A stretch of DNA of 64,000 nt, taken from the NCBI GenBank assembly GCA_965207455.1, contig CBDBMJ010000001.1, positions 1,811,043-1,875,042 of the forward strand, in the 5' to 3' direction. Numbering within the stretch: position 1 is the stretch's first letter; each line of letters opens with the position of its first letter. Both the position numbers and the translations under genes were made by a program. Under the pieces are notes generated by a model. It was not told the DNA's origin. It ran no database searches and was given only the letters and a program-made list of their open reading frames with translations. Shown here one piece after another: positions 5,131-63,808 of this stretch. The DNA is from Bdellovibrionota bacterium. Lineage in GTDB: Bacteria; Bdellovibrionota; UBA1018; CAIPTA01; JAALKR01.

Positions 5131-5147
5131 TGTCTAATTTTCAAACA
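5131..5147. repeat. Palindromic motif copy TGTCTAATTTTCAAACA in the divergent sulfatase/pilA intergenic region
   Basis: Resembles TGTCYGA-N3-TCARACA copies at 10804, 13410, 19244 and 20896, with a similar CCCAT left flank. Confidence 0.5.
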
Positions 5148-5352
5148 CCAAAAACTGCCAAAACAATATACAATAAAAAAACAATGTACCGTGTATTATC
5201 TTAATACCCTTTAACGTGAGAAATATTTTATTAAAAAAAGTAAAAAAAACTTTAGTTTTTTATACAAACGTCCGTTTAATCTATATGCAACAAGGTTAAC
5301 TTGTTGTATAATTAAAAGAGTAACAAAAATCAAAAAAGGAGAACTAAAGATT

Positions 5353-5937
5353 ATGAAAATATTGAAAACAAACAAGGGTTTTACCCTAATTGAATTAATG
5401 ATCGTTGTGGCAATTATCGGAATTTTGGCTGCCATTGCGGTACCAAACTTCCAAAGTTATCAAGCGAAAAGTAGACAGTCAGAGGCTAAAATCTCTCTAG
5501 CAACTGTTCATAGCCAAGAGATCGCTTTTAGCGCAGAGTTCGGCGGCTATGTCACTGCACTAGACGCTATTGGTTATATACCAAGCACTTCCGGTGCAGC
5601 TGTTGCAATAGCCAGTACTAGAGGATCGCAGTACTATACCGTTGGTTGGACTGGTGATGCCGCACCTAATTCTATGCCTGCCAATGCTCCATACTCATTC
5701 CTTACAATCCGTTATTGGAGAAACTCAGGGACTAATTCAGGAGATGATGGTGCTACAGGGTGCAAAAATGGTGCTGTTCTTAGCGATGCATTATCGGCAA
5801 TCAACACTGCAAAAGTGAACGGAATAACCCAAGCCTTTACTGTCGGTGCTGCAGGAAAACCCGGAACTAACAATGCTTGCGATGAGTGGACTATAAATGA
5901 AAATAAAGTTCTTGCCAACAACGTACGTAACCTATAA
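5353..5937 (+). CDS. pilA: Type IVa major pilin
   Basis: [26 protein letters not shown] class III signal, then [12 protein letters not shown]-terminal Cys pair; AAGGAG RBS. Confidence 0.95.
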
Positions 5938-5964
5938 CGTCAAGATTCGTACAGTCTAAAAACG

Positions 5965-6014
5965 AAAAGCCAGAACACTCGAAAGCGAAACGCTTCCCTG
6001 TTCTGGCTTTTTTT
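5965..6014 (+). terminator. Rho-independent terminator after pilA
   Basis: Stem AAAAGCCAGAACA / TGTTCTGGCTTTT followed by a T tract. Confidence 0.8.
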
Positions 6015-6059
6015 ATTCTGTCACCCCCATAACACATACAGTGTATCCTATAAACACAA

Positions 6060-6767
6060 ATGAAAATCATCAAACACTCAAAAACCTACCGTGTAAACTT
6101 CCTCCTCTTTCTTCTCGCCCTAATCACCGTCAGCCTATACCAAGAACAACGCCCCCACTTTCCCCTAAAAGATAAAACAACCTTTACCTTCAACGAAGGC
6201 TTCCCCTCCTTTTCCCCAGAATCCATACGCCTCTTAAGTTTTGGCTACCGCTTTGTCTGGAGTAGCCTCCTCTGGATCCGCTTCCTCCGCCACACACCTC
6301 CCAAAAGCATGGGATCCGCAGAAGTAAGCTGGATCTTCGTGGACCTAAACGCCATCTCCGTAATCGATCAAGACTTTTCCCCCGTCTATACCCACGGCGC
6401 ACTCTTCCTCTCCGTCATCACCGAAGATAAAAACGGAGCAAGACTCCTCCTAGAAAAAGGATCGAAAAAATACCCCAACTCCCTGCGAATACATTCTGCC
6501 CTAGCCTACCACTACCTCTTTGAACTCAAGGACCGCAAAAAAGCAGCCCAACAATACCAAATAGCCTCCCGGATTCCAGGAGCACCAGACTACTACGCCC
6601 TCCTTGCCGCAACCACCATGCAAAAAGAAGGGAACACAATGGCAGCTATTGCCTTCTTACAAGATATGCGAGAAAATGCAAAAGACCCCAAAGTACGAAA
6701 AAAGCTCCTACAGAAAATACACAACCTAGAAATGGGCTCAACCGAAAGAAGCACCTATGAAAAATAA
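6060..6767 (+). CDS. TPR-like pilus accessory protein (Myxococcus PilG-like)
   Basis: N-terminal TM; SSLLWIR and ARLLLEKGSKKYPNS TPR-like helices; lies between pilA and the ABC genes. Confidence 0.7.
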   Translation: MKIIKHSKTYRVNFLLFLLALITVSLYQEQRPHFPLKDKTTFTFNEGFPSFSPESIRLLSFGYRFVWSSLLWIRFLRHTPPKSMGSAEVSWIFVDLNAISVIDQDFSPVYTHGALFLSVITEDKNGARLLLEKGSKKYPNSLRIHSALAYHYLFELKDRKKAAQQYQIASRIPGAPDYYALLAATTMQKEGNTMAAIAFLQDMRENAKDPKVRKKLLQKIHNLEMGSTERSTYEK

Positions 6768-7677
6768 ACCAGCCCTAGAATTTATCAATGTCTCCAAAAC
6801 ATACCGCTCCGGATTCCTCGGCGAAAAAAAACAATCCCTAAAAAACTTGACCCTCTCCGTACCCACCGGCTCAGTCTTTGGCTTCCTCGGCGCTAACGGC
6901 GCTGGAAAAACAACGACCATAAAAATCACCCTCGGCCTTCAAAAACCCACGTCAGGCGAAGTAATCGTCCTCGGAAAAAGCAACTCTAGCAATAAAGCCA
7001 AAGCCCTTATCGGCTACCTACCCGAACGACCCACCTTTCATCTGGATCTTACTGGCAACGAATTCCTAAACTTCCACCGTAACCTCTTCGGCAACCGCAT
7101 CCAAAATAAACCCCAACTCTCTAACTCCCATCTGCTAGCTCTTGTTGGTATCCCACAAACCGCCTCCACACTCCTGCGAGAATTCTCCAAAGGCATGCTC
7201 CAACGAATCGGCATCGCCCAAGCCCTCATCAATTCTCCGGATTTGGTCATTTTGGACGAACCCATGAGCGGACTCGACCCCATCGGAAGACGCGACGTAC
7301 GCGAAATCATCTCCCAACTCGCACACGAAGGCAAAACCATCTTCTTTAGCAGCCACATCCTAAACGACGTCGAAAGCCTCTGCGACCAAATCGCCTTCCT
7401 CCAATCCGGCGAACTCAAAGTCCACGGAAAAATAAACGACATCCTGAAAAAAAGATCGTCAAAAGAAATCATCTTCAAAAACATCTCAGCCCACACCATT
7501 AAAAACTCCCCCATCCTACAAAACTCCACCCAATCCGGCGACTCCTGGACCCTACTCCTCCACAACCCCGAACACACCCAATCCACCCTCGAAACCATCT
7601 GGCAACAAAAAGGGGAACTCATCTCCGTAACCAACCAACAAATCAGCCTAGAAGAAGAACTCTTCCCATCACTATGA
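6757..7677 (+). CDS. pilH: ABC transporter ATP-binding protein (PilH-like)
   Basis: Walker A GANGAGKTT, signature FSKGMLQR, Walker B VILDEP, H-loop SSH; pil operon context. Confidence 0.85.
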   Translation: MKNKPALEFINVSKTYRSGFLGEKKQSLKNLTLSVPTGSVFGFLGANGAGKTTTIKITLGLQKPTSGEVIVLGKSNSSNKAKALIGYLPERPTFHLDLTGNEFLNFHRNLFGNRIQNKPQLSNSHLLALVGIPQTASTLLREFSKGMLQRIGIAQALINSPDLVILDEPMSGLDPIGRRDVREIISQLAHEGKTIFFSSHILNDVESLCDQIAFLQSGELKVHGKINDILKKRSSKEIIFKNISAHTIKNSPILQNSTQSGDSWTLLLHNPEHTQSTLETIWQQKGELISVTNQQISLEEELFPSL

Positions 7678-8453
7678 AAAAATACCTACAATCCGCTACC
7701 CTAACCATCGCCCTCACCACCCTCAGAGGCTTCACCCGAGACCGCATCTTCTATGCCGTCCTCCTCGTCGCCCTACTCCTCATCGCCTTCTCCTACTCCC
7801 TCGCCGGACTCACCTTCATCGGCTCCTATAAAATACTCATGGACTTCGGCTTCACCGCCATCTCCCTCTGCGGAATCCTCATCTCCATCTTCGTAGGCAT
7901 CATCTCCGTATCCAAAGAAATCGAAAACAAAACCATCTACACCATTCTCGCTAAACCCGTCCACCGCTCCCAATACATTCTGGGCAAATACCTCGGCTGT
8001 AGCCTCGTAGTCCTCATCGCCCACCTAATAATGTCCCTCTCCCTCCTAACCGTCATCTGGATCATCGGCATAAAAACCTCCACCGGCCTCTACCCCTGCT
8101 TCTACCTCATGACACTCGAAAGCCTTCTTATACTCTCCATCGCCCTGTTCTCCTCCATCTTCTCCTCCAGTGTTCTTGCCACCTGCCTCACCCTTTTGTT
8201 ATTCCTTATTGGAAGGAGTGCTTACTTCTTTCATTCTGCCTCAGAAAAAGCTGAAGGACTCATGCGCTATGTTTTTCGGATTCTCTACGACATTCTCCCT
8301 AACCTCGAACGCTTTAATCTCCGAGAAATGGCTGCCTACTCCAAGCCCTACCCCGACACCCTTCTCCTCGACAGCACCATCTACGCCCTCGCCTACACCA
8401 CCCTCTTTCTCACCCTAAGCACCATTCTTTTCATCCGACGGGACATGCCATGA
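7674..8453 (+). CDS. pilI: ABC-2 type permease (PilI-like)
   Basis: Multiple TM helices; KEIENKTIYTILAKPVHRSQYILGKYLG motif; ATGA overlaps with both neighbours. Confidence 0.85.
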   Translation: MKKYLQSATLTIALTTLRGFTRDRIFYAVLLVALLLIAFSYSLAGLTFIGSYKILMDFGFTAISLCGILISIFVGIISVSKEIENKTIYTILAKPVHRSQYILGKYLGCSLVVLIAHLIMSLSLLTVIWIIGIKTSTGLYPCFYLMTLESLLILSIALFSSIFSSSVLATCLTLLLFLIGRSAYFFHSASEKAEGLMRYVFRILYDILPNLERFNLREMAAYSKPYPDTLLLDSTIYALAYTTLFLTLSTILFIRRDMP

Positions 8454-9241
8454 TCGACCCCCAAACCATCATCCAAATCGCCTTCATCACCTTTGGTTTC
8501 ATCATCGGCAGCTTCCTCAACGTCTGCATCTCCCGCATGCCCAAAGAAAAAAGCGTGGTCTTCCCCCCCAGCGCCTGCATGACTTGCCAAAAAAACATCC
8601 CTTGGTACTGCAACATCCCCATTCTCAGCTACCTCTTCCTCCGCGGCCGCTGCCTCTACTGCAAATCCCGCATCCCCTTCCGCTACCTGCTAGTCGAATG
8701 CATCACCCCCGCCCTATTCCTCCTCTGCCTGCCCTACCCCTATATCCTCTGGCCCTTTTACGTTTACTTTCTCTCCTCCCTCGTCATTGCCACCTTTATC
8801 GACCTCGAACACTGGATCATCCCCGACAAGATCACCCTCCCAGGTATCCCCATAGGAATCCTAAGCTCCCTCGTCCACCCCTACCCTTTTATTTTGGATT
8901 CTGTGCTTGGCATGATATTTGGTGGCGGATCTCTCCTAGTCATTGGCATGATCTACGAGAAGATGAAAAAAACAGAGGGCATTGGTGGTGGCGACATAAA
9001 ATTTCTCGCCATGGGCGGCGCCTTCCTCGGCTTCAAAGGCATCATCCTCACGCTTCTTATTGCTTCCATCACTGGCATGATTATTGGACTCATCACCATG
9101 ATCAAAACAGGAAAAGGCGGCAAAACTGCCATCCCCTTCGGTCCCTTCCTCTCCGCTGGAATGCTCATCACCTTTATCTGGGGCACCCAAATCTGGGACT
9201 GGTACCTCGCCCTCACCAACCCTCAATCCCTCTTCCAATAA
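8450..9241 (+). CDS. pilD: Prepilin peptidase / N-methyltransferase, copy 1
   Basis: GSFLNV, two CxxC pairs, IDLEH and GGGDIK catalytic Asp motifs, IPFGPFL. Confidence 0.95.
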   Translation: MIDPQTIIQIAFITFGFIIGSFLNVCISRMPKEKSVVFPPSACMTCQKNIPWYCNIPILSYLFLRGRCLYCKSRIPFRYLLVECITPALFLLCLPYPYILWPFYVYFLSSLVIATFIDLEHWIIPDKITLPGIPIGILSSLVHPYPFILDSVLGMIFGGGSLLVIGMIYEKMKKTEGIGGGDIKFLAMGGAFLGFKGIILTLLIASITGMIIGLITMIKTGKGGKTAIPFGPFLSAGMLITFIWGTQIWDWYLALTNPQSLFQ

Positions 9242-9294
9242 CACACCCAACAAACCCACGGCGCAATGCCGCACGCAACAAGCTGGACACGTCA

Positions 9295-10731
9295 TTAAAA
9301 TTTTCTAGAAAATTTCCTAAACGATTTAACCAGCTCATAAGTAAGAAACGCGTTTGCTACTATCTGCAAAAAATTCCAGAAACCAAACTCACCTACAGGC
9401 AATTTAATGGGAATCACTAAACGACCAAACAGGTCAAGACAATCCCAAAAACCAACACAACACTCAAAACGAAACATATGGATAAAAAGAAATACAATAT
9501 TAATAGCTAATTGCCAAACAAAAACCCTAAAAAAAGCTGTACCAAAATAACTAAAGAGCTTCTCAATAGATAAAGTAAATTTATCCTGAAGATTGCCACC
9601 CGTCTTCCCCAGTTCATGGAGATATTTATCATGCTCTTTCGTATGAAACATCACGGCAGATATCGTATCATTTTGTTTTATGGCGAAGTGCTTTAATTGC
9701 AAGAAAGTTTCTCTGCTAAATGCATTCTCGCCTTCAATATTTATTAATCCTCTTTTTTCGTTTATATATTTAAGTGTGTTTTCTTCATCAAGAGATTCAT
9801 TCCCTCCAGTAGAAAAATCCGTTCCTTCGATAACGCAATTATCTATCTGAAGTACAAATTCTTTAGTAAAAAAAATATCTCCTAAAAAAATATTTTTTAT
9901 ATTTCCCGACAACTTAAAATGACTCCTAAAAAAAGAAAGGGTGAAATCCAATCGCTCACGAAACTCACTCATTGTAGTGTCTAATTTATTAAAAATACAT
10001 TCCCTGAAATTACAAGACCCGAGGAATTGCGTATTAAAAAATCTTGCATCATCTCGAAAATAAGATTTATAAAATCCAGCATTTTCTGCAAATCTTGTTC
10101 TCTCAAAAGAAACTTTCGATAAAAATATAGTCTCAACAAAATCTACTTCTTTTTCAAACTCTACCTTTTTAAAAAAAGAATCTCCTGTAATAATAGTATT
10201 ACTAACGCTCACTGGTTTCAGAAATTTTTTATCAGACAAATAAATGCCACCTATAATAATGAAATTATCAAAACATACCTTTCTTGAAATTTTCGCACTA
10301 TCCAATATAATATCTCCCACAATAATGCAATTATCTAAAGGCACATCCATTGAAATAAGTTCTTCAACATCAGACTGTCCTATATGAACGAATTTTTTCT
10401 TAGAATCTAGCTCTTCTTCCATGATAATAAATATTTTTTCAGAAAGGATTCCTTTATAATTAAAAATTTCTTTTATATGTGCGCTTATTTCAATCACCTC
10501 ATATTCAACACCATTAAAAACTACTTCTTGCGAGTTCAAGGAAGGATCGGAATACTTGTTTTTACTCTCATCTTCATAACGAAACTCTAACTTACCACTC
10601 GATTTATCAAAAGTAACATTGGTTAATCCCTCTCTATCAACCTTTGATATTCCGTATTTTACCTCGCTCGTTTCTTGTTCCATAAAATATATCTTACAAA
10701 ATACTATTGTAAAAAACAATTCTTTATTCAT
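9295..10731 (-). CDS. Pentapeptide-repeat protein with C-terminal TM region
   Basis: Periodic F-xx-x-F repeats (FKKVEFEKEVDFVETIFLSKVSFERTRF...); hydrophobic C-terminus; start may be MEQET at 10683. Confidence 0.75.
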   Translation of the reverse strand: MNKELFFTIVFCKIYFMEQETSEVKYGISKVDREGLTNVTFDKSSGKLEFRYEDESKNKYSDPSLNSQEVVFNGVEYEVIEISAHIKEIFNYKGILSEKIFIIMEEELDSKKKFVHIGQSDVEELISMDVPLDNCIIVGDIILDSAKISRKVCFDNFIIIGGIYLSDKKFLKPVSVSNTIITGDSFFKKVEFEKEVDFVETIFLSKVSFERTRFAENAGFYKSYFRDDARFFNTQFLGSCNFRECIFNKLDTTMSEFRERLDFTLSFFRSHFKLSGNIKNIFLGDIFFTKEFVLQIDNCVIEGTDFSTGGNESLDEENTLKYINEKRGLINIEGENAFSRETFLQLKHFAIKQNDTISAVMFHTKEHDKYLHELGKTGGNLQDKFTLSIEKLFSYFGTAFFRVFVWQLAINIVFLFIHMFRFECCVGFWDCLDLFGRLVIPIKLPVGEFGFWNFLQIVANAFLTYELVKSFRKFSRKF

Positions 10732-10796
10732 CTATCACCTTAAAAAAAGAGTAAGTGTTTCTCACAAAGAAACCATTAAGTTCTTGGAAAACTAAA

Positions 10797-10985
10797 TATC
10801 TATTGTCCGATTATCAGACATCGCACCAACAGGAACACGCCCCAGAGCAGACCTCATAATCCCTCCAGCAACAAAGCCTACCTCTATTCACACCTCTCAC
10901 AACACACAGACAAACCTCGGAACTCTTCTTGACTAACCCATGGCTTTGGTTTATGTTAAAACATAATCAATCGGCTAATTAACAG
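10797..10985 (+). repeat. Repeated ~190-bp element A (palindrome, C/A-rich spacer, sigma70 promoter)
   Basis: Alignable by eye along its length with 20889-21078; partial copies at 13410 and 19244. Confidence 0.8.
10929..10957 (+). promoter_or_regulatory. Sigma70-type promoter
   Basis: TTGACT-N17-TATGTT; TTGACT is also kept in the second copy at 21021. Confidence 0.65.
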
Positions 10986-11010
10986 AAGGCGTAAGAGAGG
11001 GAACTGAAGA

Positions 11011-11181
11011 ATGAGAAAAAAAAATAACAGCGCAACGAAAAAAGAAGACCCTGAAGAAGTTCAGAGAAGCCTTGAACAGCTCATTATTGACATAAAAAAG
11101 AAGCGACCCAAGTTCCGAAAATTCTCAAAAGAGCAGCGAGAATTCTTTATAAGGGAAGCACTAGAAGAGTATGATTCGTAG
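11011..11181 (+). CDS. 56-aa small protein not in the ORF track; RHH/CopG-like C-terminal helix
   Basis: MRKKNNSATKKEDPEEVQRSLEQLIIDIKKKRPKFRKFSKEQREFFIREALEEYDS; GAGG RBS; homologous relic at 19132-19236. Confidence 0.65.
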   Translation: MRKKNNSATKKEDPEEVQRSLEQLIIDIKKKRPKFRKFSKEQREFFIREALEEYDS

Positions 11182-11189
11182 TACCCATT

Positions 11190-12059
11190 GTGTTAGCAAG
11201 TAAATTAAAAAGAAATAAGAAATACAGTCTTTCTCAAGGAATGATCTTTGAGATACCCAGTTTAAAACTTGATTTTGATAAAGCAAAAAAAACCATTAAA
11301 GAGCTTTATCCCGAGGCAAGTCTTGATAATGTAAAGTATGGACTCATATTAACACAATCATGTGACCTCGTTCATGATAAGTTTTTTGAGCAACAAGGTG
11401 GAACTCTAGATAAAGATGAAAAAAATAACTACAAATATCGACTTCCAAAAATTCCTCACATTACATTTTGCTTGTTGGAGCCAATAAATTCTTATATTTC
11501 AGAATTTTTAAGTAAAAACGAATCAAAATTTCTATTCAAAATAGAAGACCCTGTTCCCACTAACAAAACCACTAATGTCCTTTCCTCGAGCAAAGCATTA
11601 AAACTAGTTTTGAGAGAATTTGGCAGGTTCTTTCAAAATAATCACCCTTGGGCATTTTTCATCACAATTCAATCAAAGGATAGAAAAGAATACTACTTTG
11701 TTAACTTAACAAAAATTCTCCCTCTAAGAATAATTCACTATAGCTCAATCCTCCAGAACTCTAAATTTCAGTTAACAAATGAATTTTCTAATAAATTAGC
11801 ATGGAAATTGGCGACCCTATATGGGAGAATCGGGACTAAGGATTATTCAAGAAAAGCAATCACAGAAATCATCAAGGATATTCTTGAAATCTCCCAAAAA
11901 GAGTTTTCTAGCTTAACCGATGATTCTATAGACATAGAACCTTTAGACTTTGATGCTCTTAAAAAAAATCTAGAAAGAGAACGTAACTTAAAAAAAAGAA
12001 ATGAAATCTTACAAGATCTGCTAGAGGAACACTCCATAACAAATATGAAAGGCATATAA
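11190..12059 (+). CDS. Hypothetical protein with LTQSCDL motif (289 aa)
   Basis: LSQGMIF...GLILTQSCDL...LATLYGRIG pattern; AT-rich. Confidence 0.7.
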   Translation: MLASKLKRNKKYSLSQGMIFEIPSLKLDFDKAKKTIKELYPEASLDNVKYGLILTQSCDLVHDKFFEQQGGTLDKDEKNNYKYRLPKIPHITFCLLEPINSYISEFLSKNESKFLFKIEDPVPTNKTTNVLSSSKALKLVLREFGRFFQNNHPWAFFITIQSKDRKEYYFVNLTKILPLRIIHYSSILQNSKFQLTNEFSNKLAWKLATLYGRIGTKDYSRKAITEIIKDILEISQKEFSSLTDDSIDIEPLDFDALKKNLERERNLKKRNEILQDLLEEHSITNMKGI

Positions 12060-12092
12060 GACCGAAGAACTCATACACTACATTTTTCGGCT

Positions 12093-12606
12093 CATCTACA
12101 CCATTCTCGCCAAACCCGTCCACCGCTCCCAATACATTCTGGGCAAATACCTCGGCTGTAGCCTCGTTGTCCTCATCGCTCACCTAATAATGTCCCTCTC
12201 CCTCCTAACCGTCATCTGGATCATCGGCATAAAAACCTCCACCGGCCTCTACCCCTGCTTCTACCTCATGACACTCGAAAGCCTTCTTATACTCTCCATT
12301 GCCCTGTTCTCCTCTATCTTTTCCTCCAGCGTCCTCGCCACTTGCCTCACCCTTCTACTATTCCTCATCGGAAGAAGCGCCTACTTCTTTCACTCCGCCT
12401 CTGAAAAAGCCGAAGGATTCATGCGCTATGTTTTTCGGATTCTCTACGACATTCTCCCTAACCTCGAACGCTTTAATCTCCGAGAAATGGCGGCCAAACC
12501 CTACCCCGACACCCTTCTCCTCGACAGCACCATCTACGCCCTCGCCTACACCACCCTCTTTCTCACCCTAAGCACCATTCTTTTCATCCGACGGGACATG
12601 CCATGA
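12093..12606 (+). pseudogene. pilI: 5'-truncated copy of the pilI permease
   Basis: Lacks the first ~260 bp of 7674-8453; MAAYSKPY becomes MAAKPY. Confidence 0.85.
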
Positions 12607-13394
12607 TCGACCCCCAAACCATCATCCAAATCGCCTTCATCACCTTTGGTTTCATCATCGGCAGCTTCCTCAACGTCTGCATCTCCCGCATGCCCAAAGA
12701 AAAAAGCGTGGTCTTCCCCCCCAGCGCCTGCATGACTTGCCAAAAAAACATCCCTTGGTACTGCAACATCCCCATTCTCAGCTACCTCTTCCTCCGCGGC
12801 CGCTGCCTCTACTGCAAATCCCGCATCCCCTTCCGCTACCTGCTAGTCGAATGCATCACCCCCGCCCTATTCCTCCTCTGCCTGCCCTACCCCTATATCC
12901 TCTGGCCCTTTTACGTTTACTTTCTCTCCTCCCTCGTCATTGCCACCTTTATCGACCTCGAACACTGGATCATCCCCGACAAGATCACCCTCCCAGGTAT
13001 CCCCATAGGAATCCTAAGCTCCCTCGTCCACCCCTACCCTTTTATTTTGGATTCTGTGCTTGGCATGATATTTGGTGGCGGATCTCTCCTAGTCATTGGC
13101 ATGATCTACGAGAAGATGAAAAAAACAGAGGGCATTGGTGGTGGCGACATAAAATTTCTTGCCATGGGCGGCGCCTTCCTCGGCTTCAAAGGCATCATCC
13201 TCACGCTTCTTATTGCTTCCATCACTGGCATGATTATTGGGCTCATCACCATGGTCAAAACAGGAAAAGGTGCCAAGACTGCCATCCCCTTCGGTCCCTT
13301 CCTCTCCGCTGGAATGCTCATCACCTTTATCTGGGGCACCCAAATCTGGGACTGGTACCTTGCCCTCACCAACCCTCAATCCCTCTTCCAATAA
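12603..13394 (+). CDS. pilD: Prepilin peptidase, copy 2 (intact)
   Basis: 263 aa; differs from copy 1 at two residues (MIKTGKGG vs MVKTGKGA). Confidence 0.93.
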   Translation: MIDPQTIIQIAFITFGFIIGSFLNVCISRMPKEKSVVFPPSACMTCQKNIPWYCNIPILSYLFLRGRCLYCKSRIPFRYLLVECITPALFLLCLPYPYILWPFYVYFLSSLVIATFIDLEHWIIPDKITLPGIPIGILSSLVHPYPFILDSVLGMIFGGGSLLVIGMIYEKMKKTEGIGGGDIKFLAMGGAFLGFKGIILTLLIASITGMIIGLITMVKTGKGAKTAIPFGPFLSAGMLITFIWGTQIWDWYLALTNPQSLFQ

Positions 13395-13606
13395 CACTCA
13401 AAACACCCTTGTCCGATTTTCAAACATCGCACTAACAAACACCCCTCCCAAAGCAAACCTCACAATATTCACACAGCTCAACACAGCAGGTACCAATATT
13501 GCTAGCAGCACGTCTCCTTATATTTTGATATAATTTCATTATGCCGTGGTCATCCGTAAAACAATTTGCTATAAACGTTTTAGTGTATAAATTTACAGGA
13601 TAAACA

Positions 13607-14389
13607 ATGCAAAGCAAACTGGTAAAAAAATGTAAAAACTCAAACCTAATTGAGGCATCGCTGACTCTTCTTGGAGAACCCAAAAAATACCAAAAAGATT
13701 CCCACCTTGGATTCAGGGAACATATTAAAAAATACCTGAGAGAGGAAAATAACTTATCCAACTTAAAATCAGAACGCATCAATAGTGCTCGCCTAACCAG
13801 AGAAGACGAAAACGGAATGGTCCTACCCTATTTAGACAGGCAGTTTACTATAAAAGAGAAAAACAAAACTTACCGAACAGGCCACCAAATCGCAGGATTC
13901 CATACAACTCACGAAGGCGATAATAACCGATACACAACTTATGACAGTGAAATCGCCCCGTATATAGAAAGTTTTATAGAAAAAATAAACGAATTCAACA
14001 ACCGATTTAATGTTATAGAAATGGTTTTCTGCTATGTAAATAATTTTCTATTCCCTCGGAATGGCTTTATGCTGGACAAATATTTTGACCTTGCCATTAG
14101 AACAGGGATCGGCTCACAACATGGAGTCCAAGAGACCTTGTTCTCTTTTTTATATCCTCTGGATGGAAACACCGTGAAAATATCACTCCGCGGATACCCC
14201 CATGATAAGGATCAAATTCGTATCGTAGTTGAAACAACTGGTATAAAAAAGATTGAACCCACATCCATTTCCGATTACAGGAAAATAATGGAGGAATCTA
14301 AAATCCTAAAGGATATAACAAAAGCTCAATTTTTCAACCTTACCAGCGACGAAACAAAACATAAAATACTAGGAGCAAAATATGAGTAA
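13607..14389 (+). CDS. TIGR04255-like protein
   Basis: LIEASLTL near the N-terminus, central CYVNNF (RYIN-like), C-terminal FFNLTSDE; family call from recalled pattern. Confidence 0.5.
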   Translation: MQSKLVKKCKNSNLIEASLTLLGEPKKYQKDSHLGFREHIKKYLREENNLSNLKSERINSARLTREDENGMVLPYLDRQFTIKEKNKTYRTGHQIAGFHTTHEGDNNRYTTYDSEIAPYIESFIEKINEFNNRFNVIEMVFCYVNNFLFPRNGFMLDKYFDLAIRTGIGSQHGVQETLFSFLYPLDGNTVKISLRGYPHDKDQIRIVVETTGIKKIEPTSISDYRKIMEESKILKDITKAQFFNLTSDETKHKILGAKYE

Positions 14390-14879
14390 TCCCATCACAG
14401 CCGAACCAATGCTCCTTCCAAAAACAATTCATAGTGATGCGAAAGGCAACATTAAAGACGACAGCTACTTCTATAGCGAAGCAGACCTCCCCACCCTTCT
14501 CTCTCAACCACTACAGGAGCAAAATTCTCTTTCTGAATCTCCCGAAGCAATTAAAAAATCTGTACGGGATTTTTCTTTTGACACAGAAAAAAACAATCCT
14601 GTAACCATCACATCTTCCGTAGTTGGAAAATGGAATAATTACGAAGAACTCTCTGATTTATTGGCAGGGATTAATTATAATGAATTTTGCAAGCGAGCCA
14701 CTACCAGTGAAATGTACTGGAAACCAATCATTGAAGAACGCCTGGAAGAACTGTATCCAGAAAATATGTCTGAAGAATTAAAGAAACTAAAAAGTATAAA
14801 TAGAGCAACACGAGATATATTAGAGAAAATCAAAAAAGGAACCAAGAGAAATTTTTTTAGAAAAATTTTTCGCAAATAG
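14382..14879 (+). CDS. Hypothetical protein (165 aa)
   Basis: Overlaps the upstream gene; GGAG RBS; operon-like spacing. Confidence 0.65.
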   Translation: MSNPITAEPMLLPKTIHSDAKGNIKDDSYFYSEADLPTLLSQPLQEQNSLSESPEAIKKSVRDFSFDTEKNNPVTITSSVVGKWNNYEELSDLLAGINYNEFCKRATTSEMYWKPIIEERLEELYPENMSEELKKLKSINRATRDILEKIKKGTKRNFFRKIFRK

Positions 14880-14894
14880 AGACTACTGAAGTAA

Positions 14895-15581
14895 ATGGCA
14901 ACGTTAAACTGTGGAGAAAATAAGTCTCCAGCATCTCATTACAGAAATCACATATCAGATTTAAATATTCTTTTCTTCAAAAAATTTTGCGCATACTGCT
15001 GGACAGCCGATAAGGCAGAAACTATTGATCACTATAAGCCAAGGAAACATTTTCCCAATCTTAAAACTGAATTCAGAAATTTACTTCTTGTCTGTGCCAC
15101 GTGCAATTCAAAAAAAGGAGATTATCACCCCGAAGCAAAAAACAGAAAAATATATAAGGACGAAACGCATTACATATTCAATTGTCGCGAGCATGATATA
15201 GGAGAATTTATAAAAGTAAGCAACGATGGGAAGATCTCATCCAAGAAAAATTTACGGAAAGAACGAGAACAAGTTGCTTTTTTTATTCGGATATTTAATC
15301 TAGAAAAAACAGAAACGAAAAGTACAAGAAAGGAACACATAGAAATATTAGAAGCAACAAAAGAAGCGATGCAGTTGTTAAAAAATAGAGCTCGCTGTGA
15401 GAATAAGGCAAGCCTTGAACGGATTTTAGATACAAATATTGGGCTTATTGCTACCAGATTTTTATTCTTTCACCTTTTAAATTTAAAAATACCAAGCGAG
15501 TTAAAGGAAAGAATAGAAAAAAAGAGAAGAGAACTTCTATGCGCACAAAGACTAAACCCAATTATCTCAAAATTGATTTAG
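14895..15581 (+). CDS. HNH endonuclease
   Basis: CAYC...TIDHYKP...NLLLVCATCNSKKG Zn-finger HNH motif. Confidence 0.88.
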   Translation: MATLNCGENKSPASHYRNHISDLNILFFKKFCAYCWTADKAETIDHYKPRKHFPNLKTEFRNLLLVCATCNSKKGDYHPEAKNRKIYKDETHYIFNCREHDIGEFIKVSNDGKISSKKNLRKEREQVAFFIRIFNLEKTETKSTRKEHIEILEATKEAMQLLKNRARCENKASLERILDTNIGLIATRFLFFHLLNLKIPSELKERIEKKRRELLCAQRLNPIISKLI

Positions 15582-15693
15582 AAACTATTTGCAAGCTTAT
15601 CGATGTTGTTGTAATATCAAAGAAGGCTGGATGAAATGCAAACATTATTTTAAACTAGGAATAAACCCTAATTACTTCGGAGGAACGCGATGA
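15575..15693 (+). pseudogene. Relic 3' end of the proteasome-beta-like gene
   Basis: DLETICKLIDVVVISKKAG...KHYFK...NPNYFGG matches the end of 19371-20588. Confidence 0.8.
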
Positions 15694-15887
15694 CTGAAAC
15701 TAAAAAGACAGAAGAAAAGATACACAGACCATCCAAGGAGCATACCGTTGTAGATGATTCTGAGATAACTTTTGAAAAAGACCCCTACAAATACGGACAG
15801 AAAATAGGAAGAATAGCAGTGAGGGAAGCCTATATAAAAACTTTGAGAAAATTTCGTGATGCTAAAAAACTTCAAGCAAAGTCATAA
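15690..15887 (+). CDS. Small protein, paralogue of 20585-20824
   Basis: FEKDPYKYGQKIG vs FHDDPYEYGRQMA; same TTCGGAGGAA RBS context. Confidence 0.7.
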   Translation: MTETKKTEEKIHRPSKEHTVVDDSEITFEKDPYKYGQKIGRIAVREAYIKTLRKFRDAKKLQAKS

Positions 15888-15926
15888 GATGCACTCTCAC
15901 CAAACCTTAAACATGTGTAAATAATT

Positions 15927-16511
15927 ATGCTAAGATTCCCCTGGAAAAAAACCACCATGTTCTCCAAAGATCATTCGTCGAAACACCTCGACGAGATCCA
16001 ACTCCGCAACCGAAAAAACATCCTGAAAGTCGCAGCCATCCTCAGCCTCCTCCTACTCCTCTACCCCGTAATAAAAGAAAAAAGCTACCTCTTCTCCATC
16101 CAAAACCAAGCCCGCACCCTAACCAAAGAAATCCTAAACGCCAGACTCCAAGCCACCAAAACCCGCAACCCAACTTCCCTCACACTCCTCAACCCACAAA
16201 CATGGCAATACAACGAATTCCCACAAAAACACGACTGCGACGGAACACCCAACCCCAACACAAAAAAAAACCTCCCCTTCCCCGACTTCCAATGGCGCGC
16301 CCTCCTCCTCAAATCCAATAACCCCACCGGCATCGGCTCAGACATCCAACAACTCTGCTTCCACCCCATCCACGGCATCACCCTCAACAACCAAAATCTC
16401 TCCTCCCACCAACTCTTCCTACTCGTCTCACCACAAGAAAACACCAAACGACAAAACATCCAACAAATCATCCTCTCCAACTCCGGCATCCAAATCCAAC
16501 CCCTCCAATAA
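15927..16511 (+). CDS. Pseudopilin/FimT-like protein without a canonical prepilin cleavage site
   Basis: One TM helix then ARTLTKEILNARLQA and LCFHPIHG, FimT/GspH-like; same C/A-rich codon use as the pil genes. Confidence 0.5.
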   Translation: MLRFPWKKTTMFSKDHSSKHLDEIQLRNRKNILKVAAILSLLLLLYPVIKEKSYLFSIQNQARTLTKEILNARLQATKTRNPTSLTLLNPQTWQYNEFPQKHDCDGTPNPNTKKNLPFPDFQWRALLLKSNNPTGIGSDIQQLCFHPIHGITLNNQNLSSHQLFLLVSPQENTKRQNIQQIILSNSGIQIQPLQ

Positions 16512-16521
16512 AATAAGTATT

Positions 16522-16578
16522 TCACTGGACCTAAAAACTGTTGGCAAATCTGCTAATATTGCTGTAATATCAAAGAAA
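16522..16578 (+). pseudogene. Second relic of the proteasome-beta-like gene 3' region
   Basis: Translates SLDLKTVGKSANIAVISKK vs SPNLETICEPIDVAVISKK at 20454-20510. Confidence 0.65.
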
Positions 16579-16588
16579 AAGGAACTTA

Positions 16589-17647
16589 ATGGAATTAGAA
16601 AAACATAAGCATCTCAAAAAAAATAATATGCCAATCTCATATTTTGAAAATTATGAGATAAAAGAAATTAATATCAGCAACCTGAAATTCTTGCTAAAAA
16701 GAAGACCTCTAACATTCAAAATTCTTATACCCAAAAATAAAACCAGCCACAGAAAACGTACACTGCAAACAATATTTCAAGAAATAAATTATATGATTGA
16801 AGAAATCGCTGACAATACTATAATTGGTGTCCGTAAAGATATTTTTTTATTGGACTTTAACATAAAAAAATGCCTGCAGCAATATCAGATATACATGAAC
16901 TATCAGTTATAATTGGAATTTCTGAGGAACTCGACTGCTCTCAAACAGCAGAAAAAAAGTTCAAAACCCTCCAAGCATACACGCAGCGCTATGGCTTAAA
17001 TAAAATTAACATTTCAGAAAGCAACTTTCTAAAAAAAATATCGATTTTTAATAGAGGAGTGAATTTAGGTATTCAAATTAAAAGGAAACTGCGGCTTCAA
17101 GGGAAAGACCTAGAATGGTCCGGACTCACAAACCACAAGAAAGATAGCTCCGATATTTATTGCAATGGCCACGGAATATCTCTTAAAGACACAAGTAAAA
17201 TTATTTAACATAAGAAAAAAAATAGTCAAGGAAGTTTCTGATAAAGTCTTAGCTATCTTGAAAGAAGGACTGCTTCAAGATCCAGAACATTTCTCCCATA
17301 AAATGAAAATTATACTTCAATATGGAAATGTTAAAAAATTCTTTGGGTTCAGCAGTTCAGCAATGACTTATGTGGGATGTATAAATAAAGAAAATGATAT
17401 TCATATATCTCCTTTGAACGTATCCTCTGAGAAATCTAAACTAACTCCCACAACTGTTGGGCTGCAAATAAATTTCTACACAACAATGGATATTTCTCTT
17501 CCTTTATCTCAAATAACTATAAAAATTCAAAATCAATTGCGCTACAAGCACCGTACTTTCAGCTGCGCCCCAGAGGCAAACTTTCATTTACTAAGTTACG
17601 GCGATTGGAAGAAAATTTATCCAACTCAGGAATGTCTTGAACGATAA
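16589..17647 (+). pseudogene. Probable fragmented restriction endonuclease (three overlapping ORFs)
   Basis: ORFs 16589-16912, 16870-17208 and 17165-17647 in shifting frames; SSDI...ISLK PD-(D/E)xK-like; convergent with a C5 MTase. Confidence 0.5.
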
Positions 17648-18942
17648 AAAAGCTTAGGCCAAAGGAATTCTATTCTTTTTGCAATATGATATGCCAGCAG
17701 CGGAGGAACTGCATTTCCTATAAGCTTATATGCTTCTGATGTGCTCACTCCATTATCTCCTAAAAAGGAAAAATTATCTGGAAATGTTTGAATTCTTGCA
17801 CACTCCCTAATAGTAAGCCTACGTTCTATTAAATTCATTTTAAGGTCATTCTTACACAAGCCACCATGTTCAGACAATAGCCGTCGGAATTCTATATTCC
17901 CATGGTGCTCTGCTCGAATAGTTGGGCCAATCGTGTCGAGATTAATCTCTCTATTGCCCTGACAGTGTTTCCCATACCATTTTGCCCTTGAGTATGCTTT
18001 TTGATTAATATCACTTGTCTGATCTGGCTCTTTCAAATCTTTAAATATTGTCCTAAGAGGTACAAAGGTTTTTAAATTTTGCAAATTAATTTTCCCCGTA
18101 GCATGTGTTTTTTTCGGCAGTGGTGAATAATTTTCAGGAATTATATCTTTAGATAGCTCCTTCATAGCTTGTGGTCGCAATGAATCTTTTCTAAACCCAA
18201 TAAAGAAAACTCGCTCTCTTGACTGAGGCACACCATATTCTGCCGAGTTCAGCAATTTTCCATCAATAACAATATACCCACCATCTCCAATATTTTTAAA
18301 ATCTTCTTGTATTATTTCTTTTACATCATGTAATGAAATCAATCCCTTAACATTCTCTGCAATAAAAATCTTGGGCTGGACAATATCAATCACCTCTCTC
18401 ATCCAAGTGTAAAGCATCCCTCGATTATCTTCATTTACATGTTTTAAATCACTGCCTTTATGACTCTTATGAGATGAAAATCCCTTTCTTTTCCCTGCAA
18501 GGGAAAAATCTTGACAAGGAAAACCACCTGTAAGTACATCCACATTATTGGGAAATAGATTTTTCTCTCCATCCCAATGCCTTTTCACCCTGTCAACAAT
18601 ACTTTCCAAATGAAAGGAGCCAACCTCATAATGCTGATTGAAGAAATTAGACCAGACCTTCCGAGCCCCTAGCCTGATATCATTGGCAAAAATTGTTTTA
18701 AATCTTGTTGGCTGAAGCCTAACTTGTGATTTTTTTGTTCTTTCCTGCACCCATTGAGCATGGATATTTTCATTTATACATGCTCGATGTACCTCAAATC
18801 CACCCTCAAACCCCAAGTCCATACCTCCACAACCACTGAAGAGACTTAAAACGTTTAAATCTTTTTCATATTTTTTTTTATTATATTCCTGACCGGATTT
18901 TCTCATCCGCAAATCATCTGATATCTTTTGAGCTTTCATCAT
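17626..18942 (-). CDS. dcm: DNA (cytosine-5) methyltransferase
   Basis: LFSGCGG, GFPCQDFS, ENVKG, PQSRERVF, RECARIQTFPD and IGNAVPP motifs. Confidence 0.95.
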   Translation of the reverse strand: MMKAQKISDDLRMRKSGQEYNKKKYEKDLNVLSLFSGCGGMDLGFEGGFEVHRACINENIHAQWVQERTKKSQVRLQPTRFKTIFANDIRLGARKVWSNFFNQHYEVGSFHLESIVDRVKRHWDGEKNLFPNNVDVLTGGFPCQDFSLAGKRKGFSSHKSHKGSDLKHVNEDNRGMLYTWMREVIDIVQPKIFIAENVKGLISLHDVKEIIQEDFKNIGDGGYIVIDGKLLNSAEYGVPQSRERVFFIGFRKDSLRPQAMKELSKDIIPENYSPLPKKTHATGKINLQNLKTFVPLRTIFKDLKEPDQTSDINQKAYSRAKWYGKHCQGNREINLDTIGPTIRAEHHGNIEFRRLLSEHGGLCKNDLKMNLIERRLTIRECARIQTFPDNFSFLGDNGVSTSEAYKLIGNAVPPLLAYHIAKRIEFLWPKLFYRSRHS

Positions 18943-19131
18943 TATAACCTATCTCTATTCCTCCACTATTACAATAATCGCTATCTTCATAACGTTCACT
19001 TAAACTAAATATCTCTCAACCAAGAAAATGCGATGCAAAACCTCCTCCTGAAAAAACCTAACCTCTCCAATAAATGCTCCTCCCATCGCCACGCATCTGA
19101 TGCACAGATCTTTCCGACTCGATGCGCTGAT

Positions 19132-19236
19132 CAACTCATTATTGATATAAAAAAGAAGCAGCCCAAGTTCCAAGAATTTTCAAAGGAATAGAAAGATTTC
19201 TTTATAGAGAAAATACTAGAAGAATATAATTCGTAG
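19132..19236 (+). pseudogene. Relic of the 56-aa small gene
   Basis: QLIIDIKKKQPKFQEFSKE*KDFFIEKILEEYNS*; internal TAG where the intact copy has CAG. Confidence 0.75.
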
Positions 19237-19290
19237 TATCTACTGTCTGATTATCAGACATCACACCAACAAAAACACTCCCCCCAGAGA
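19237..19290 (+). repeat. Partial element A with perfect palindrome TGTCTGA-TTA-TCAGACA (19244-19260)
   Basis: Direct match to 10797-10850. Confidence 0.8.
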
Positions 19291-19370
19291 ACATCTTCCG
19301 CTATCTCCAACGGCTCAAAAATTGCTTCTATAAAGTTCCAGTCAACAAATTTCATAAGAGAGGATTTTAA

Positions 19371-20588
19371 ATGACCGCAGAAGTTTCCATAATGAATAGG
19401 TCAGCAGTAGCCCTAGCCGCCGACAGTGCCATTACCACTATAGACAATAAGGTACATAAAACGGGAAGCAAGCTGTTTGCAGTAAATCATGGAATGCCCA
19501 TTGGAATTATGTTTTACGGAAGCACCACTTTACTCGGTATACCTCTAGAAACAGCTCTATCCTCATTTAGAAAACATATAGATAAAAGAAAATTTAAAAC
19601 AGTAAAAGAATGTGGAAAATCATTTATCAATTTTTTAAGTAGCAATGAAATCCTGTATCCTACTGACGTACAGAAAAAATATTATTTAGATTATCTAAAT
19701 CTTTCTATAAGAAAGCATCTAGATAATATGAATAAAGAAATTATCAGAAATATGTTTCAGGAGGAATTTAAAAAATGGAATAACGCACCCTATGTTGATG
19801 GAATGGTAGAGAACGATAAGGATAAATTACTCATAAAATATGAGATTGATTTTAGCCATATTATCGATAAGGCTTTTAAAAATCACTCTCTGAATGGCAT
19901 GCCCAAAACCGATTTATATAATTTATGCGCAAACTACGCCTGCAAAGCGATTCTCTCTGACGAATATAAAAGTGGCGTAGTGTTCTGTGGGTTTGGCGAG
20001 GAAGAAAACTACCCCAGTCTTTATGCCGTAGAGTTAGAATTAATTGTTCAAAATAAACTGAAATTTATTGTTTCCCATCAATTCAAAACTACAGATTCCG
20101 ACCCAGCTTCAATACATCCATTTGCACAGAGAGAAGCGATAATATCATTCCTCCGAGGAATTGATCCTAAGTTCTTAAATTGCATTCATGGGTATATGAT
20201 AAATATTTTTGGGACGATCGATAGTTCAATAAAAAATGAGTTTCCTGATCAAATTGACGTACAAAAAAAGCTGATGCTTTTGATTGAGCATTTAAAGCAA
20301 AAGTCTATTTCTAACATATTCAAAGAATTAGGCGCAGTAAGTGAGAAAGACTTTATCAATCCCACGATAAACGCCACAGAAACTCTATCTAAAGATGACC
20401 TAGCTCATATGGCTGAAACATTAGTGAGCCTAGCTTCTTTCAGGCAAAAAATGTCGCCGAACTTAGAAACTATTTGCGAACCTATTGATGTTGCTGTAAT
20501 ATCAAAGAAAGATGGATTTATCTGGATTAAACGAAAACATTATTTCAAGCCAGAAATGAATCCCAGTTACTTCGGAGGAATACAATGA
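19371..20588 (+). CDS. Proteasome beta-subunit/HslV-like Ntn hydrolase with large insertion (405 aa)
   Basis: After Met removal: Thr1, Asp17 (AADS), Lys33 (SKLF); C-terminal PIDVAVISK; GAGG RBS. Confidence 0.75.
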   Translation: MTAEVSIMNRSAVALAADSAITTIDNKVHKTGSKLFAVNHGMPIGIMFYGSTTLLGIPLETALSSFRKHIDKRKFKTVKECGKSFINFLSSNEILYPTDVQKKYYLDYLNLSIRKHLDNMNKEIIRNMFQEEFKKWNNAPYVDGMVENDKDKLLIKYEIDFSHIIDKAFKNHSLNGMPKTDLYNLCANYACKAILSDEYKSGVVFCGFGEEENYPSLYAVELELIVQNKLKFIVSHQFKTTDSDPASIHPFAQREAIISFLRGIDPKFLNCIHGYMINIFGTIDSSIKNEFPDQIDVQKKLMLLIEHLKQKSISNIFKELGAVSEKDFINPTINATETLSKDDLAHMAETLVSLASFRQKMSPNLETICEPIDVAVISKKDGFIWIKRKHYFKPEMNPSYFGGIQ

Positions 20589-20824
20589 CTAAAAATAAGA
20601 AAAAAAAAGAAAAGGTATACACATCATACGATCAGTATCTTAGGGAATTTTTAGGTATCGATACTACTCCTAAGGTGAATTTCCACGATGACCCTTATGA
20701 GTACGGTAGGCAAATGGCAGACAGAACAATGAAAGAGGTTCTCAAAGCATTTAACGAATCTAAAAAACGCCTAGAAAAGTCATCAAGCATACAAAAATCA
20801 AAGCCAATTACTTCGAAAAAATGA
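20585..20824 (+). CDS. Small charged partner protein (79 aa)
   Basis: ATGA overlap with the upstream gene; GGAGG RBS; paralogue at 15690. Confidence 0.75.
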   Translation: MTKNKKKKEKVYTSYDQYLREFLGIDTTPKVNFHDDPYEYGRQMADRTMKEVLKAFNESKKRLEKSSSIQKSKPITSKK

Positions 20825-20888
20825 AATAACTAAAAAGAAAAGGGGCGAAGGTATAATGCTAGAAACAAATACTTCTATTAAAACCAGG

Positions 20889-21078
20889 TATCTATCGTCC
20901 GATTATCAGACATCGCACCAACAAGCGCATACCTCAGAGTAGACCTTACAATTTCCCCAGTAGCAAAAAATAACCTCTATTCACACCTTCCGCAACATGC
21001 AGATGACCTCAAGATTTCCCTTGACTAGTCCATAAGTTTAGTTTAATTATAAAGCATATTTAATCAGGTCATTAAGAG
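20889..21078 (+). repeat. Element A, second long copy
   Basis: TATCTATCGTCCGATTATCAGACATCGCACCAACA...CCTCTATTCACACC...TTGACTA, homologous to 10797-10985. Confidence 0.8.
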
Positions 21079-21300
21079 GAAAAGACAAAGGACGATAATG
21101 GAAAAAGGGAAGTACTATGGATCTCTCATAAAATGCCTTTTCTGTGTTTTTTCCTCAGTATTTGCCCTTGTAATTACAAGCATTGCATTCAAAAGTCTTA
21201 TCGGTTTCGATAAACTGGCTCTTCTAAAAAAAATCTTTTTTTATTAATAATAACGCTCTAACAGTCAAGGATTCTCCCATGAGTTTGGAAAAACTTATAG

Positions 21301-22200: not shown

Positions 22201-22209
22201 TGAAAAAAC

Positions 22210-61872: not shown

Positions 61873-62064
61873 GTTTCATCGCCTATGGAAAGCTAAATCT
61901 ATATTATGCGTGATCTGATCGTGATCAAATGGTTAAATTGGGGGAATTAGCGGAACTAGTCGGTGCTATGCAGCAATGGCACTAGGTTTTTGTTTGTGTT
62001 TCTTTAATTTCAACAAGTTATATTTTTTTTTCTAACTATTGCGCCTACAAAATGAAAAAAAATA

Positions 62065-63691: not shown

Positions 63692-63808
63692 AGAGTGAAA
63701 AAAATATTGACAGTAGATAGCAAGTGAGATTATTGTGTCCTTATATAAAAGAGGTACGCAGTGTGTCTCTTAATAATTAAATTAATAATCAAAGAAAGAA
63801 GGTAAATT

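Follow-up and report, generated by a model that had tools for sequence, protein, structure and literature searches.

A TGT-N11-ACA palindrome heading cargo modules in a strain-variable pilD island is a probable sigma-54 upstream activator sequence

The palindrome TGTCYGA-N3-TCARACA recurs at the heads of unrelated gene blocks in a 64,000-nucleotide stretch of a Bdellovibrionota bacterium genome (the window). Our sequence analysis favors, at a probability of roughly 0.7, a reading in which the palindrome is a sigma-54 upstream activator sequence and copies of the module that carries it head the cargo of a strain-variable island, probably reshuffled by homologous or microhomology recombination. 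Sigma-54-type boxes at core genes, an aggregate spacing signal in relatives, and boxes at copies 19244 and 13410 make it most likely that the TGT-N11-ACA palindrome serves a sigma-54 DNA-uptake/recombination regulon as its upstream activator sequence. The patchy 97% pilI'-pilD duplicate, shared cargo relics, and joints lying off the motif in a strain-mixed run, X1, indicate that the island probably reshuffles by ordinary recombination, and not as an integron-like cassette array. The earlier note on this DNA had proposed a recombination or capture site that supplies a promoter to incoming genes. Its view that the palindrome marks module starts in a strain-variable island holds, and promoter supply to the cargo is likely, but recombination or capture at the site is not supported. 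An operator of the enhancer-binding-protein type, TGT-N11-ACA, had been listed there as an alternative, and the spacing to −24/−12 boxes at core genes makes it the best reading.

All five claimed copies of the palindrome are present, at 5131, 10804, 13410, 19244, and 20896, and all are in direct orientation. Copies 10804, 13410, and 19244 fit the 17-base pattern exactly, those at 5131 and 20896 carry one mismatch each, and 19244 is the sole perfect palindrome among the five. TATCTAY precedes three of the five, in agreement with the remark that most follow TAYCYAY-like bases. The pattern gives 10 strand-matches in the window versus a shuffle mean of 1.53, and 0 of 100 shuffles reach 10, a post hoc test in that the pattern was derived from the tested sites themselves. 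The repeat is better supported by shared flanking DNA: the flanks of 10804, 13410, 19244, and 20896 are 81–89% identical over 37–60 nt, the island-copy homology spans about −7 to +45–50, from the palindrome through the box position, and 10768–10985 aligns with 20861–21078 at 72.7% identity over 220 columns. Each of these four copies begins a shared module. Copy 5131 (5131..5147), upstream of pilA and a divergent sulfatase gene, has no flank in common with them and a class-A score of 18.6. It is probably outside the module family and may belong to the second TGT-N11-ACA class of this genome, which is found 87–129 nt upstream of numerous other sigma-54 promoters. No further copy of the 220-nt element was found in the genome or in 30 relatives, and a search of 30 relatives for a 421-nt element likewise gave no match. 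Among relatives, the 17-mer occurs only in G017, as tandem repeats, and the extended 22–28-nt pattern has zero matches in genome_contigs, metagenome_contigs, and viral_contigs.

The four modules, all on the plus strand, differ in their promoter elements. Module 1 (10797..10985) comprises TATCTAT, the palindrome at 10804–10820, and a C/A-rich spacer; it lacks a GG-N10-GC box and contains sigma-70-like TTGACT (10929) and TATGTT (10952) elements. Module 2 (13410..13503) opens with the palindrome at 13410–13426 and has a sigma-54-type box at 13488–13503, 61 nt away, and a decayed box at 13474, 47 nt away. In module 3 (19237..19326), TATCTAC and the perfect palindrome (19244–19260) are followed after 50 nt by a sigma-54-type box at 19311–19326. 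Module 4 (20889..21078) carries the palindrome at 20896–20912 and TTGACT at 21021, with no GG-N10-GC box. A pairwise alignment, judged by eye, suggests that 9242..9294 (plus strand), after the first pilD copy, is possibly a decayed module start that has lost its palindrome. The earlier note had missed the boxes at 13488 and 19311 and had ended its ~190-bp elements in a TTGACT promoter. The two TTGACT sites exist, but as promoters they match weakly: each is a 9/12 sigma-70 match, of which 47 were found versus 35.9 expected by chance. The tail-to-head joint reported near 19132–19260 was recovered, with 11073–11191 matching 19128–19246 (plus strand), a relic of the 3′ end of the 56-aa gene that abuts module 3, at 79.8% identity.

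Outside the window, only two sites match the original pattern with at most one mismatch: one precedes comEC and the other comM, each at exactly 48 nt from a −24/−12 box, and the earlier note had mentioned neither. The palindrome stands 48–49 nt upstream of a sigma-54-type −24/−12 promoter at comEC, comM, recQ, recA, and a second ssb gene, which goes part of the way toward the common core-gene placement that the earlier note regarded as incompatible with its cassette array. The gap is also 47–50 nt at copy 19244, at C1:585161/587515, a duplicated promoter ahead of a methylase island, and at C3:362626, where palindrome and box precede an HTH/DUF4411 pair. A ranking of 2094 ORFs used two matrices, one built from the five palindromes of the window alone and one for sigma-54 built on 24 other promoters; comM ranked 2, comEC 3, recA 8, recQ 10, and ssb 13. 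The recA and ssb sites were paired with boxes after the spacing had been fixed, and both fall at 48 nt. Because the 47–50 window was chosen after comEC, comM, and recQ had been seen, the hypergeometric values (3e-7 to 5e-5) overstate the association. Four further genes, dprA, comF, pilB, and pilA, fall outside the set, at ranks 294–1888 of the 2094 ORFs (pilA, 333). One top-ranking joint match, present in two copies, falls within an IS and is probably spurious. A GG-N10-GC box is present downstream of 13410, 19244, comEC, comM, recQ, and 585161/587515; none occurs at the right distance from copies 10804, 20896, and 5131, and recA, ssb, and C3:362626 lack the −24 GG. Even without the box, copies 10804 and 20896 retain conserved flanks and an almost perfect palindrome. 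The genome encodes rpoN and eight activators, seven with an HTH_8 domain.

The spacing was also examined in relatives. Of 105 distances, the best is 48 for recA (26 genomes) and 47 for both recQ (9 genomes) and comEC/comM (12 regions). For ssbB, which was left out of training, it is again 48 (10 genomes), and the housekeeping ssb, the ssbA control, shows no such 47–48-nt peak in relatives. In the order's other genomes, the 47–48-nt spacing is an aggregate signal over four gene sets that is weak per genome: all 19 control windows are beaten in 1 of 12 comEC/comM regions, 1 of 9 genomes for recQ, and 3 of 10 for ssbB. The corresponding recA counts are 5/9 at the order level and 0/17 at the class level; coding conservation is a confounder here, since an upstream ORF contains the recA site. 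A search for a same-genus genome for strain alignment found none, the best metagenome PilD being 58% identical.

The inverted repeat fits the TGT-N10-12-ACA class, a common type of activator site whose gap to the promoter is usually 100–250 bp (PMC6615313). Like the FhlA/NifA-like Fis-type sites in that account, it has inverted TGT/ACA halves, here with an 11-nt spacer, upstream of a −24/−12 box, in a genome that encodes rpoN and Fis-HTH activators (PMC6615313). It is unlike them in being a single site at a short, fixed gap of 47–50 nt versus 100–250 bp, in having DNA-uptake and recombination genes as targets, and in copies that head foreign cargo (PMC6615313). We infer that one of the eight enhancer-binding ATPases binds the palindrome, centered near −83, and opens the sigma-54 complex. 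This promoter class is predicted to switch on comEC, comM, recQ, recA, and the second ssb, and cargo behind the intact modules (13410 and 19244) would be co-expressed with the DNA-uptake and recombination genes. Modules 10804 and 20896, having lost the sigma-54 box, may use the downstream sigma-70-like promoter.

Sigma-54 and an activator are tied to DNA uptake elsewhere. In Ralstonia solanacearum, RpoN1-PehR controls pilA and natural transformation (PMC4371752), and Xanthomonas uses RpoN2-PilRX (PMC7170775). Control in those systems, as described there, runs via pilin genes, whereas the module here stands at comEC, comM, recQ, recA, and ssb; pilA has no module, and no clear PilR orthologue was found (best 40%). 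A literature search, which covered few subscription papers and no supplements, found no published sigma-54 regulon covering comEC/comM/recA and no description of the palindrome motif. If the sigma-54 reading is right, it would define a DNA-uptake/recombination regulon (comEC, comM, recQ, recA, and ssb) with its motif and spacing in an uncultured Bdellovibrio-like order. It would also suggest that foreign restriction- or defense-like genes at three genome loci are wired to this regulon, which would link the uptake of DNA to protection against it in a way that can be tested.

The island interrupts a conserved pilD operon and differs between strains. After copy 5131 come pilA, a type IV pilin gene that varies between strains (5353..5937, plus strand), and the core genes for a pilG/pilH/pilI-like ABC module and pilD (6060..9241, plus), which have the same order in G001; the pilGHI names follow Myxococcus usage. 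A pentapeptide-repeat cargo gene (9295..10731, minus), a minority haplotype in X1, follows. Behind module 1 come a 56-aa gene of no known family (11011..11181, plus), with one relative at 93%, and a 289-aa QSCD-motif gene (11190..12059, plus) that is weakly related to the cargo following the second promoter pair (C1:587854). The next block, absent from the earlier note, is a duplicate of the pilI 3′ part and pilD (12093..13405, plus) that is 96.9% identical to 7934–9252, with the differences in patches. The cargo after module 2 (13607..15887, plus) consists of a TIGR04255-like gene, whose match is below the cut-off, a 165-aa gene, an HNH nuclease gene, a 3′ relic of a 405-aa gene, and a 65-aa gene. 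A core gene (15927..16511, plus) that directly follows pilD in 13 of the 13 relatives' loci listed comes next; a weak GspH match in 3 of 12 members of its family, the sole Pfam indication, hints faintly that it might encode a pseudopilin. Then come a fragmented restriction-endonuclease-like gene (plus) and a C5 methylase gene (minus), also counted as cargo, in 16589..18942. Module 3 precedes a gene for a widespread unnamed 405-aa protein with faint proteasome-beta likeness and its 79-aa partner (19371..20824, plus); module 4 precedes a 49-aa ORF and relic beta-family (plus) and sce7726 (minus) genes, both broken, in 21098..22842. Of the unrelated genes that the earlier note described after the copies, TIGR04255, HNH, and the beta relic were recovered, and its proteasome-like pair reduces to a PDB match at E~0.4.

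The locus resembles integrase-less hotspots of horizontal transfer in that core genes flank variable cargo, an integrase is lacking nearby, the flanking genes have mosaic alleles, and the host has competence genes. It differs from them in holding a duplicate of a flanking core block within the island and in the repeated host-regulon promoter borne by its cargo units. The hotspot features, namely interrupted core order, the mosaic duplicate, and divergent pilG-H alleles (the last from X1), come from one genome plus that run. The module may have arrived downstream of pilD in this lineage and then risen in copy number via duplication and strain-to-strain replacement, the presumed homology being provided by pilI-pilD, by cargo relics held in common, and by module sequence. 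The X1 joint 13470-CT-19309, with 22 letters on its short side and a depth of 6, gives the 13410 copy an intact box at exactly 48 nt. Runs X2 and X3 yielded small pieces only.

Repeated short direct sites between unrelated cargo genes also characterize integron attC arrays and dif/pdif modules, and the island shares this arrangement. One rival, to which we assign a low probability, takes up the main idea of the earlier note: the extended palindrome would also serve for site-specific crossover, perhaps as a one-armed XerC-type site with an 11-6-11 frame, where cassettes are inserted and excised while the module gives the promoter. Copies 10804, 19244, and 20896 match the XerC arm of a candidate chromosomal dif (C1:721619) at 10 of 11 positions, but the three share ancestry and count once. 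The place of a second arm, 6 nt away, is taken by the conserved TATCTAY flank, yet this agrees with the XerD arm at only 2–3 of 11 positions, which is chance level, and a full dif site was rejected. Also in favor of the rival, homology begins sharply near the site, the 56-aa tail changes partner right after TGT, the match of one QSCD allele in X1 begins at 11196, immediately past the would-be spacer, the palindrome is retained where the sigma-54 box is lost, and a dif-like cargo array adjoins. Against crossover near TGT, as claimed earlier, none of 14 X1 contig joints (contigs drop rare forms) falls there. The joints are located at the ends of genes or some tens of bases off the motif; the loose ends listed include −18 and −7 from the site. 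The best match to the IntI profile TIGR02249 reaches 82 bits versus a cut-off of 265 in this 94.7%-complete genome, and core promoters carry the same motif alone, at fixed sigma-54 spacing. As the earlier note had observed, no recombinase lies in the window (zero Pfam tyrosine or serine recombinases; nearest, 89 kb away). An integron attC was rejected after folding of four elements gave −5 to −13.1 kcal/mol (z 0.74 to −2.25) and short local stems only. Unlike integron and dif arrays, the island lacks IntI, a long attC-type hairpin, an XerD arm, and joints at the site; if the sigma-54 reading is right, the case for a new integron-like system at pilD is lowered.

A combined form is just as doubtful: a dual-use cassette head, in which the activator site of a competence-state sigma-54 promoter doubles as a one-armed XerC-type crossover and imported DNA is captured behind it. 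If true, defense or restriction genes would be turned on at the very time that foreign DNA is being imported and recombined, and the pilus operon would contain a promoter-capture array without its own integrase.

It is slightly less probable still that the palindrome is an operator for a repressor or for a DNA-damage regulator substituting for SOS, with the −12 TTGC read by sigma-54 or another sigma factor. The presence of recA, recQ, and ssb among the targets, the failure to find LexA in the 94.7%-complete genome, the absence of the module from pilus genes, dprA, and comF, and the degenerate −24 box at several targets fit such a regulator. However, comEC and comM take the highest ranks, the site stands some 50 nt before the promoter and does not overlap it, and the geometry fits the Fis-type activator sites of PMC6615313. 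This rival would, in any case, change what triggers the site more than what kind of site it is.

Relic coding fragments or the ends of a small mobile element are very improbable: two copies share an identical minus-frame peptide and TGT...ACA ends resemble transposon termini, but in three copies the minus frame stops within 1–12 codons of the motif and the peptides differ, all copies are directly oriented, the 220-nt element was not found elsewhere in the genome or in 30 relatives, and solo motifs occur at core promoters.

Two further candidates were rejected. The 56-aa protein is not favored as the palindrome binder, since genomes in which it is not known also conserve the arrangement. A PilR site for pilA was ruled out by the lack of a clear PilR and of a sigma-54 box before pilA in this genome; in G001, a sigma-54 box does precede pilA.

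All five copies of the 17-nt palindrome TGTCYGA-N3-TCARACA described in the earlier note are present, at window positions 5131, 10804, 13410, 19244 and 20896. All map to a locus of type IV pilus genes, comprising pilA, an ABC module and pilD, on the terminal part of contig C1 of a 2.38-Mb genome that is 94.7% complete; none of the 30 relatives searched is from the same genus. Four copies share flanking DNA, and the 5131 copy has no flank in common with them. Homology among the four starts 0-7 nt before the TGT and fades 45-50 nt past the palindrome, at the expected position of a sigma-54-type -24/-12 promoter (GG-N10-GC, here the box). Copy 19244 is followed by a box at 19311, and copy 13410 by one at 13488 plus a decayed one at 13474. 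Copies 10804 and 20896 keep the palindrome without any box and run on into a common stretch of ~100 nt with a weak sigma-70 match.

Scanning the genome with at most one mismatch yielded only two more matches, one in front of comEC and the other in front of the gene for the YifB/ComM ATPase; in each case a -24/-12-type box follows at a distance of exactly 48 nt. When a site matrix built from the five window copies alone was used, site-box pairs clustered at 47-51 nt: 47 nt at C1:587515; 48 nt at C1:585161, comEC and comM; 49 nt at recQ (identified by Pfam); 50 nt at window 19244; and 51 nt at one weak genic match. The gap at window 13410 is 61 nt. With the gap fixed at 45-52 nt, the best new matches all fall at 48 nt, namely an HTH/DUF4411 gene pair, recA, the second ssb (ssbB) and an IS-internal sequence, the last (one sequence in two copies) likely being false. 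All 2094 ORFs were ranked at 47-50 nt using matrices without the comM, comEC, C1:585247, HTH, recA, recQ and ssb promoters. The window 405-aa gene, part of the training set, ranks first, followed by comM (2), comEC (3), the C1:585247 methylase gene (4), the HTH gene (7), recA (8), recQ (10) and the second ssb (13); strong sigma-54 promoters from training fill the remaining top-13 places. The genes dprA, comF, pilA and pilB fall outside this set (ranks 294-1888). Because the 47-50 nt range was picked after comEC, comM and recQ had been seen, independent support comes from recA, ssb and the relatives only.

Relatives were scored with this genome's matrices over 105 distances. The best distance is 48 for recA (26 genomes, 3 more being left out for too little upstream DNA), a set confounded because the site falls within an upstream ORF; it is 47 both for recQ (9 order-level genomes) and for comEC/comM (12 regions). 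The second ssb, excluded from training, peaks at 48 in 10 genomes, and the housekeeping ssb, its control, has no peak there; the paralogues were told apart by score and contig context. Genome by genome the signal is mostly weak: all 19 control windows are beaten in 1 of 12 comEC/comM regions, 1 of 9 recQ, 3 of 10 second ssb and 5 of 9 order-level recA cases, and in none of 17 class-level recA cases. The arrangement is thus conserved within the order while the motif itself drifts. Each of the 11 order members gave a ComEC match; with this query ComM reached E<1e-60 in just 3 of the 31 genomes, from which absence elsewhere does not follow.

The palindrome most likely works like a sigma-54 upstream activator sequence; the feature is real and would be mostly a promoter, not a recombination site. 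The enhancer-binding-protein operator (TGT-N11-ACA), offered earlier as an alternative, is supported by the site lying 48-49 nt before a -24/-12-type box at comEC, comM, recQ, recA and the second ssb. The genome encodes rpoN and eight AAA+ activators; neither LexA nor a clear PilR was found in the 94.7% complete assembly. PMC6615313 gives TGT-N10-12-ACA as a frequent kind of activator site, found as a rule 100-250 bp from the promoter; the kind is alike here, but the short, fixed gap is unusual. In PMC4371752 and PMC7170775, sigma-54 governs transformation or pili via pilin genes, whereas this motif precedes comEC, comM, recA, recQ and ssb. Our literature search returned no description of the motif or of a sigma-54 regulon covering those five genes.

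A second TGT-N11-ACA class lies 87-129 nt before ~18 other sigma-54 promoters, and the 5131 palindrome scores well on it. Such TGTCTA-N5-TAGWCA-type sites, spread over the genome (for example C1:160089, 124445, 236995 and 1101708; C3:36671, 70492 and 356531), look like marks of a second sigma-54 regulon, mostly before genes resembling small secreted proteins. One lies between two activators without regulatory domains (C3:457405/458550). The stretch in front of pilA (window 5148-5352) is without the box that precedes pilA in the relative G001, and in it a 19-nt inverted repeat stands immediately before a TATAAT (~5290-5312); with no clear PilR, pilA control seems rewired.

A sigma-54 promoter whose activator site doubles as a XerC-type crossover point is an unlikely reading. 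Three palindrome copies match the XerC arm of a candidate chromosomal dif (C1:721619-721646, near the cumulative-skew maximum at 746266) at 10 of 11 positions on the minus strand, and the XerD arm at only 2-3 of 11. The non-integron cassette array proposed in the earlier note, with crossover near TGT, was not supported: 0 of 14 joints in X1, a strain-mixed sequencing run whose contigs were aligned to the window, fall at a TGT, although contigs omit rare forms. Its statement that the window holds no recombinase agrees with the Pfam search. Integron or dif-module membership failed on the features tested, with no IntI in the 94.7% complete genome, no long attC-like hairpin in the elements and the poor XerD arm.

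A homologue of window 15927-16511 lies directly 3' of pilD in 13 of 13 relatives' loci with ORFs listed (11 aligned); here cargo interrupts that junction. The pilI 3' part and pilD are duplicated (7934-9252 and 12093-13405; 96.9% identity, differences patchy), possibly an assembly join of two strains; both junctions are supported by contigs in some form. X1 joints include 11204-20552, 12100-8295, 20588-11000, 20595-15760 and 13470-19309. The last, via two letters, gives an intact box 48 nt past the 13410 palindrome; this short joint has 22 letters on one of its sides and a depth of 6, and was placed at 80% likeness. X1 may be the source sample and so lends no independent support. It carries divergent pilA and pilG-H alleles and the pentapeptide gene at low depth. 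Its summed depth over the motif (~215) exceeds the sum over those reference copies that could be read off, and among the loose ends displayed, those at 10786 and 10797 lead to other upstream neighbours, so further module alleles likely exist. Relics (the 405-aa gene tail twice, the 56-aa gene once) could serve as homology. Island turnover would proceed by homologous and microhomology recombination, which the joints and relics fit, much as PMC5635113 suggests for hotspots without an integrase in bacteria capable of transformation.

The C-skew of the modules (-0.47 to -0.75) resembles that of pil core genes, most cargo being near -0.1, which suggests long residence; the ssb spacer, though, is C-rich as well. 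The pilG, pilH, pilI, pilD and pilD-adjacent genes (6060-9241, 12603-13394, 15927-16511) have the top five C-skews of 1762 genes, with third-position values of -0.70 to -0.86 (genome first percentile, -0.52); the orthologous locus of G001 has no such skew. At a second locus of like design (C1:585131-589115), a duplicated 130-nt site plus sigma-54 promoter flanks a C5 methylase and endonuclease relic, and the duplicated promoter also stands before a gene weakly related to the QSCD gene; an HTH gene and a gene for an MqsA/SocA-like antitoxin are neighbours.

A separate minus-strand array (C1:1746991-1811530) has at least 10 same-direction dif-like sites (11-6-11) between defence-type cargo genes, the last at window 461-488. 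Xer-type modules are therefore plausible in this genome, though they look unlike the palindrome modules; as a Xer-type cassette array, this one is a stronger candidate than the palindrome. It contains two additional DprA-family genes (C1:1749506 and 1789393), apart from core dprA. An inverted-repeat pair (window 62039-63707) encloses a 415-aa ORF. In G017, a class-level relative, three to four tandem 20-nt repeats holding the 17-mer (C2:446450-446530) look like iterons or transposase-binding repeats.
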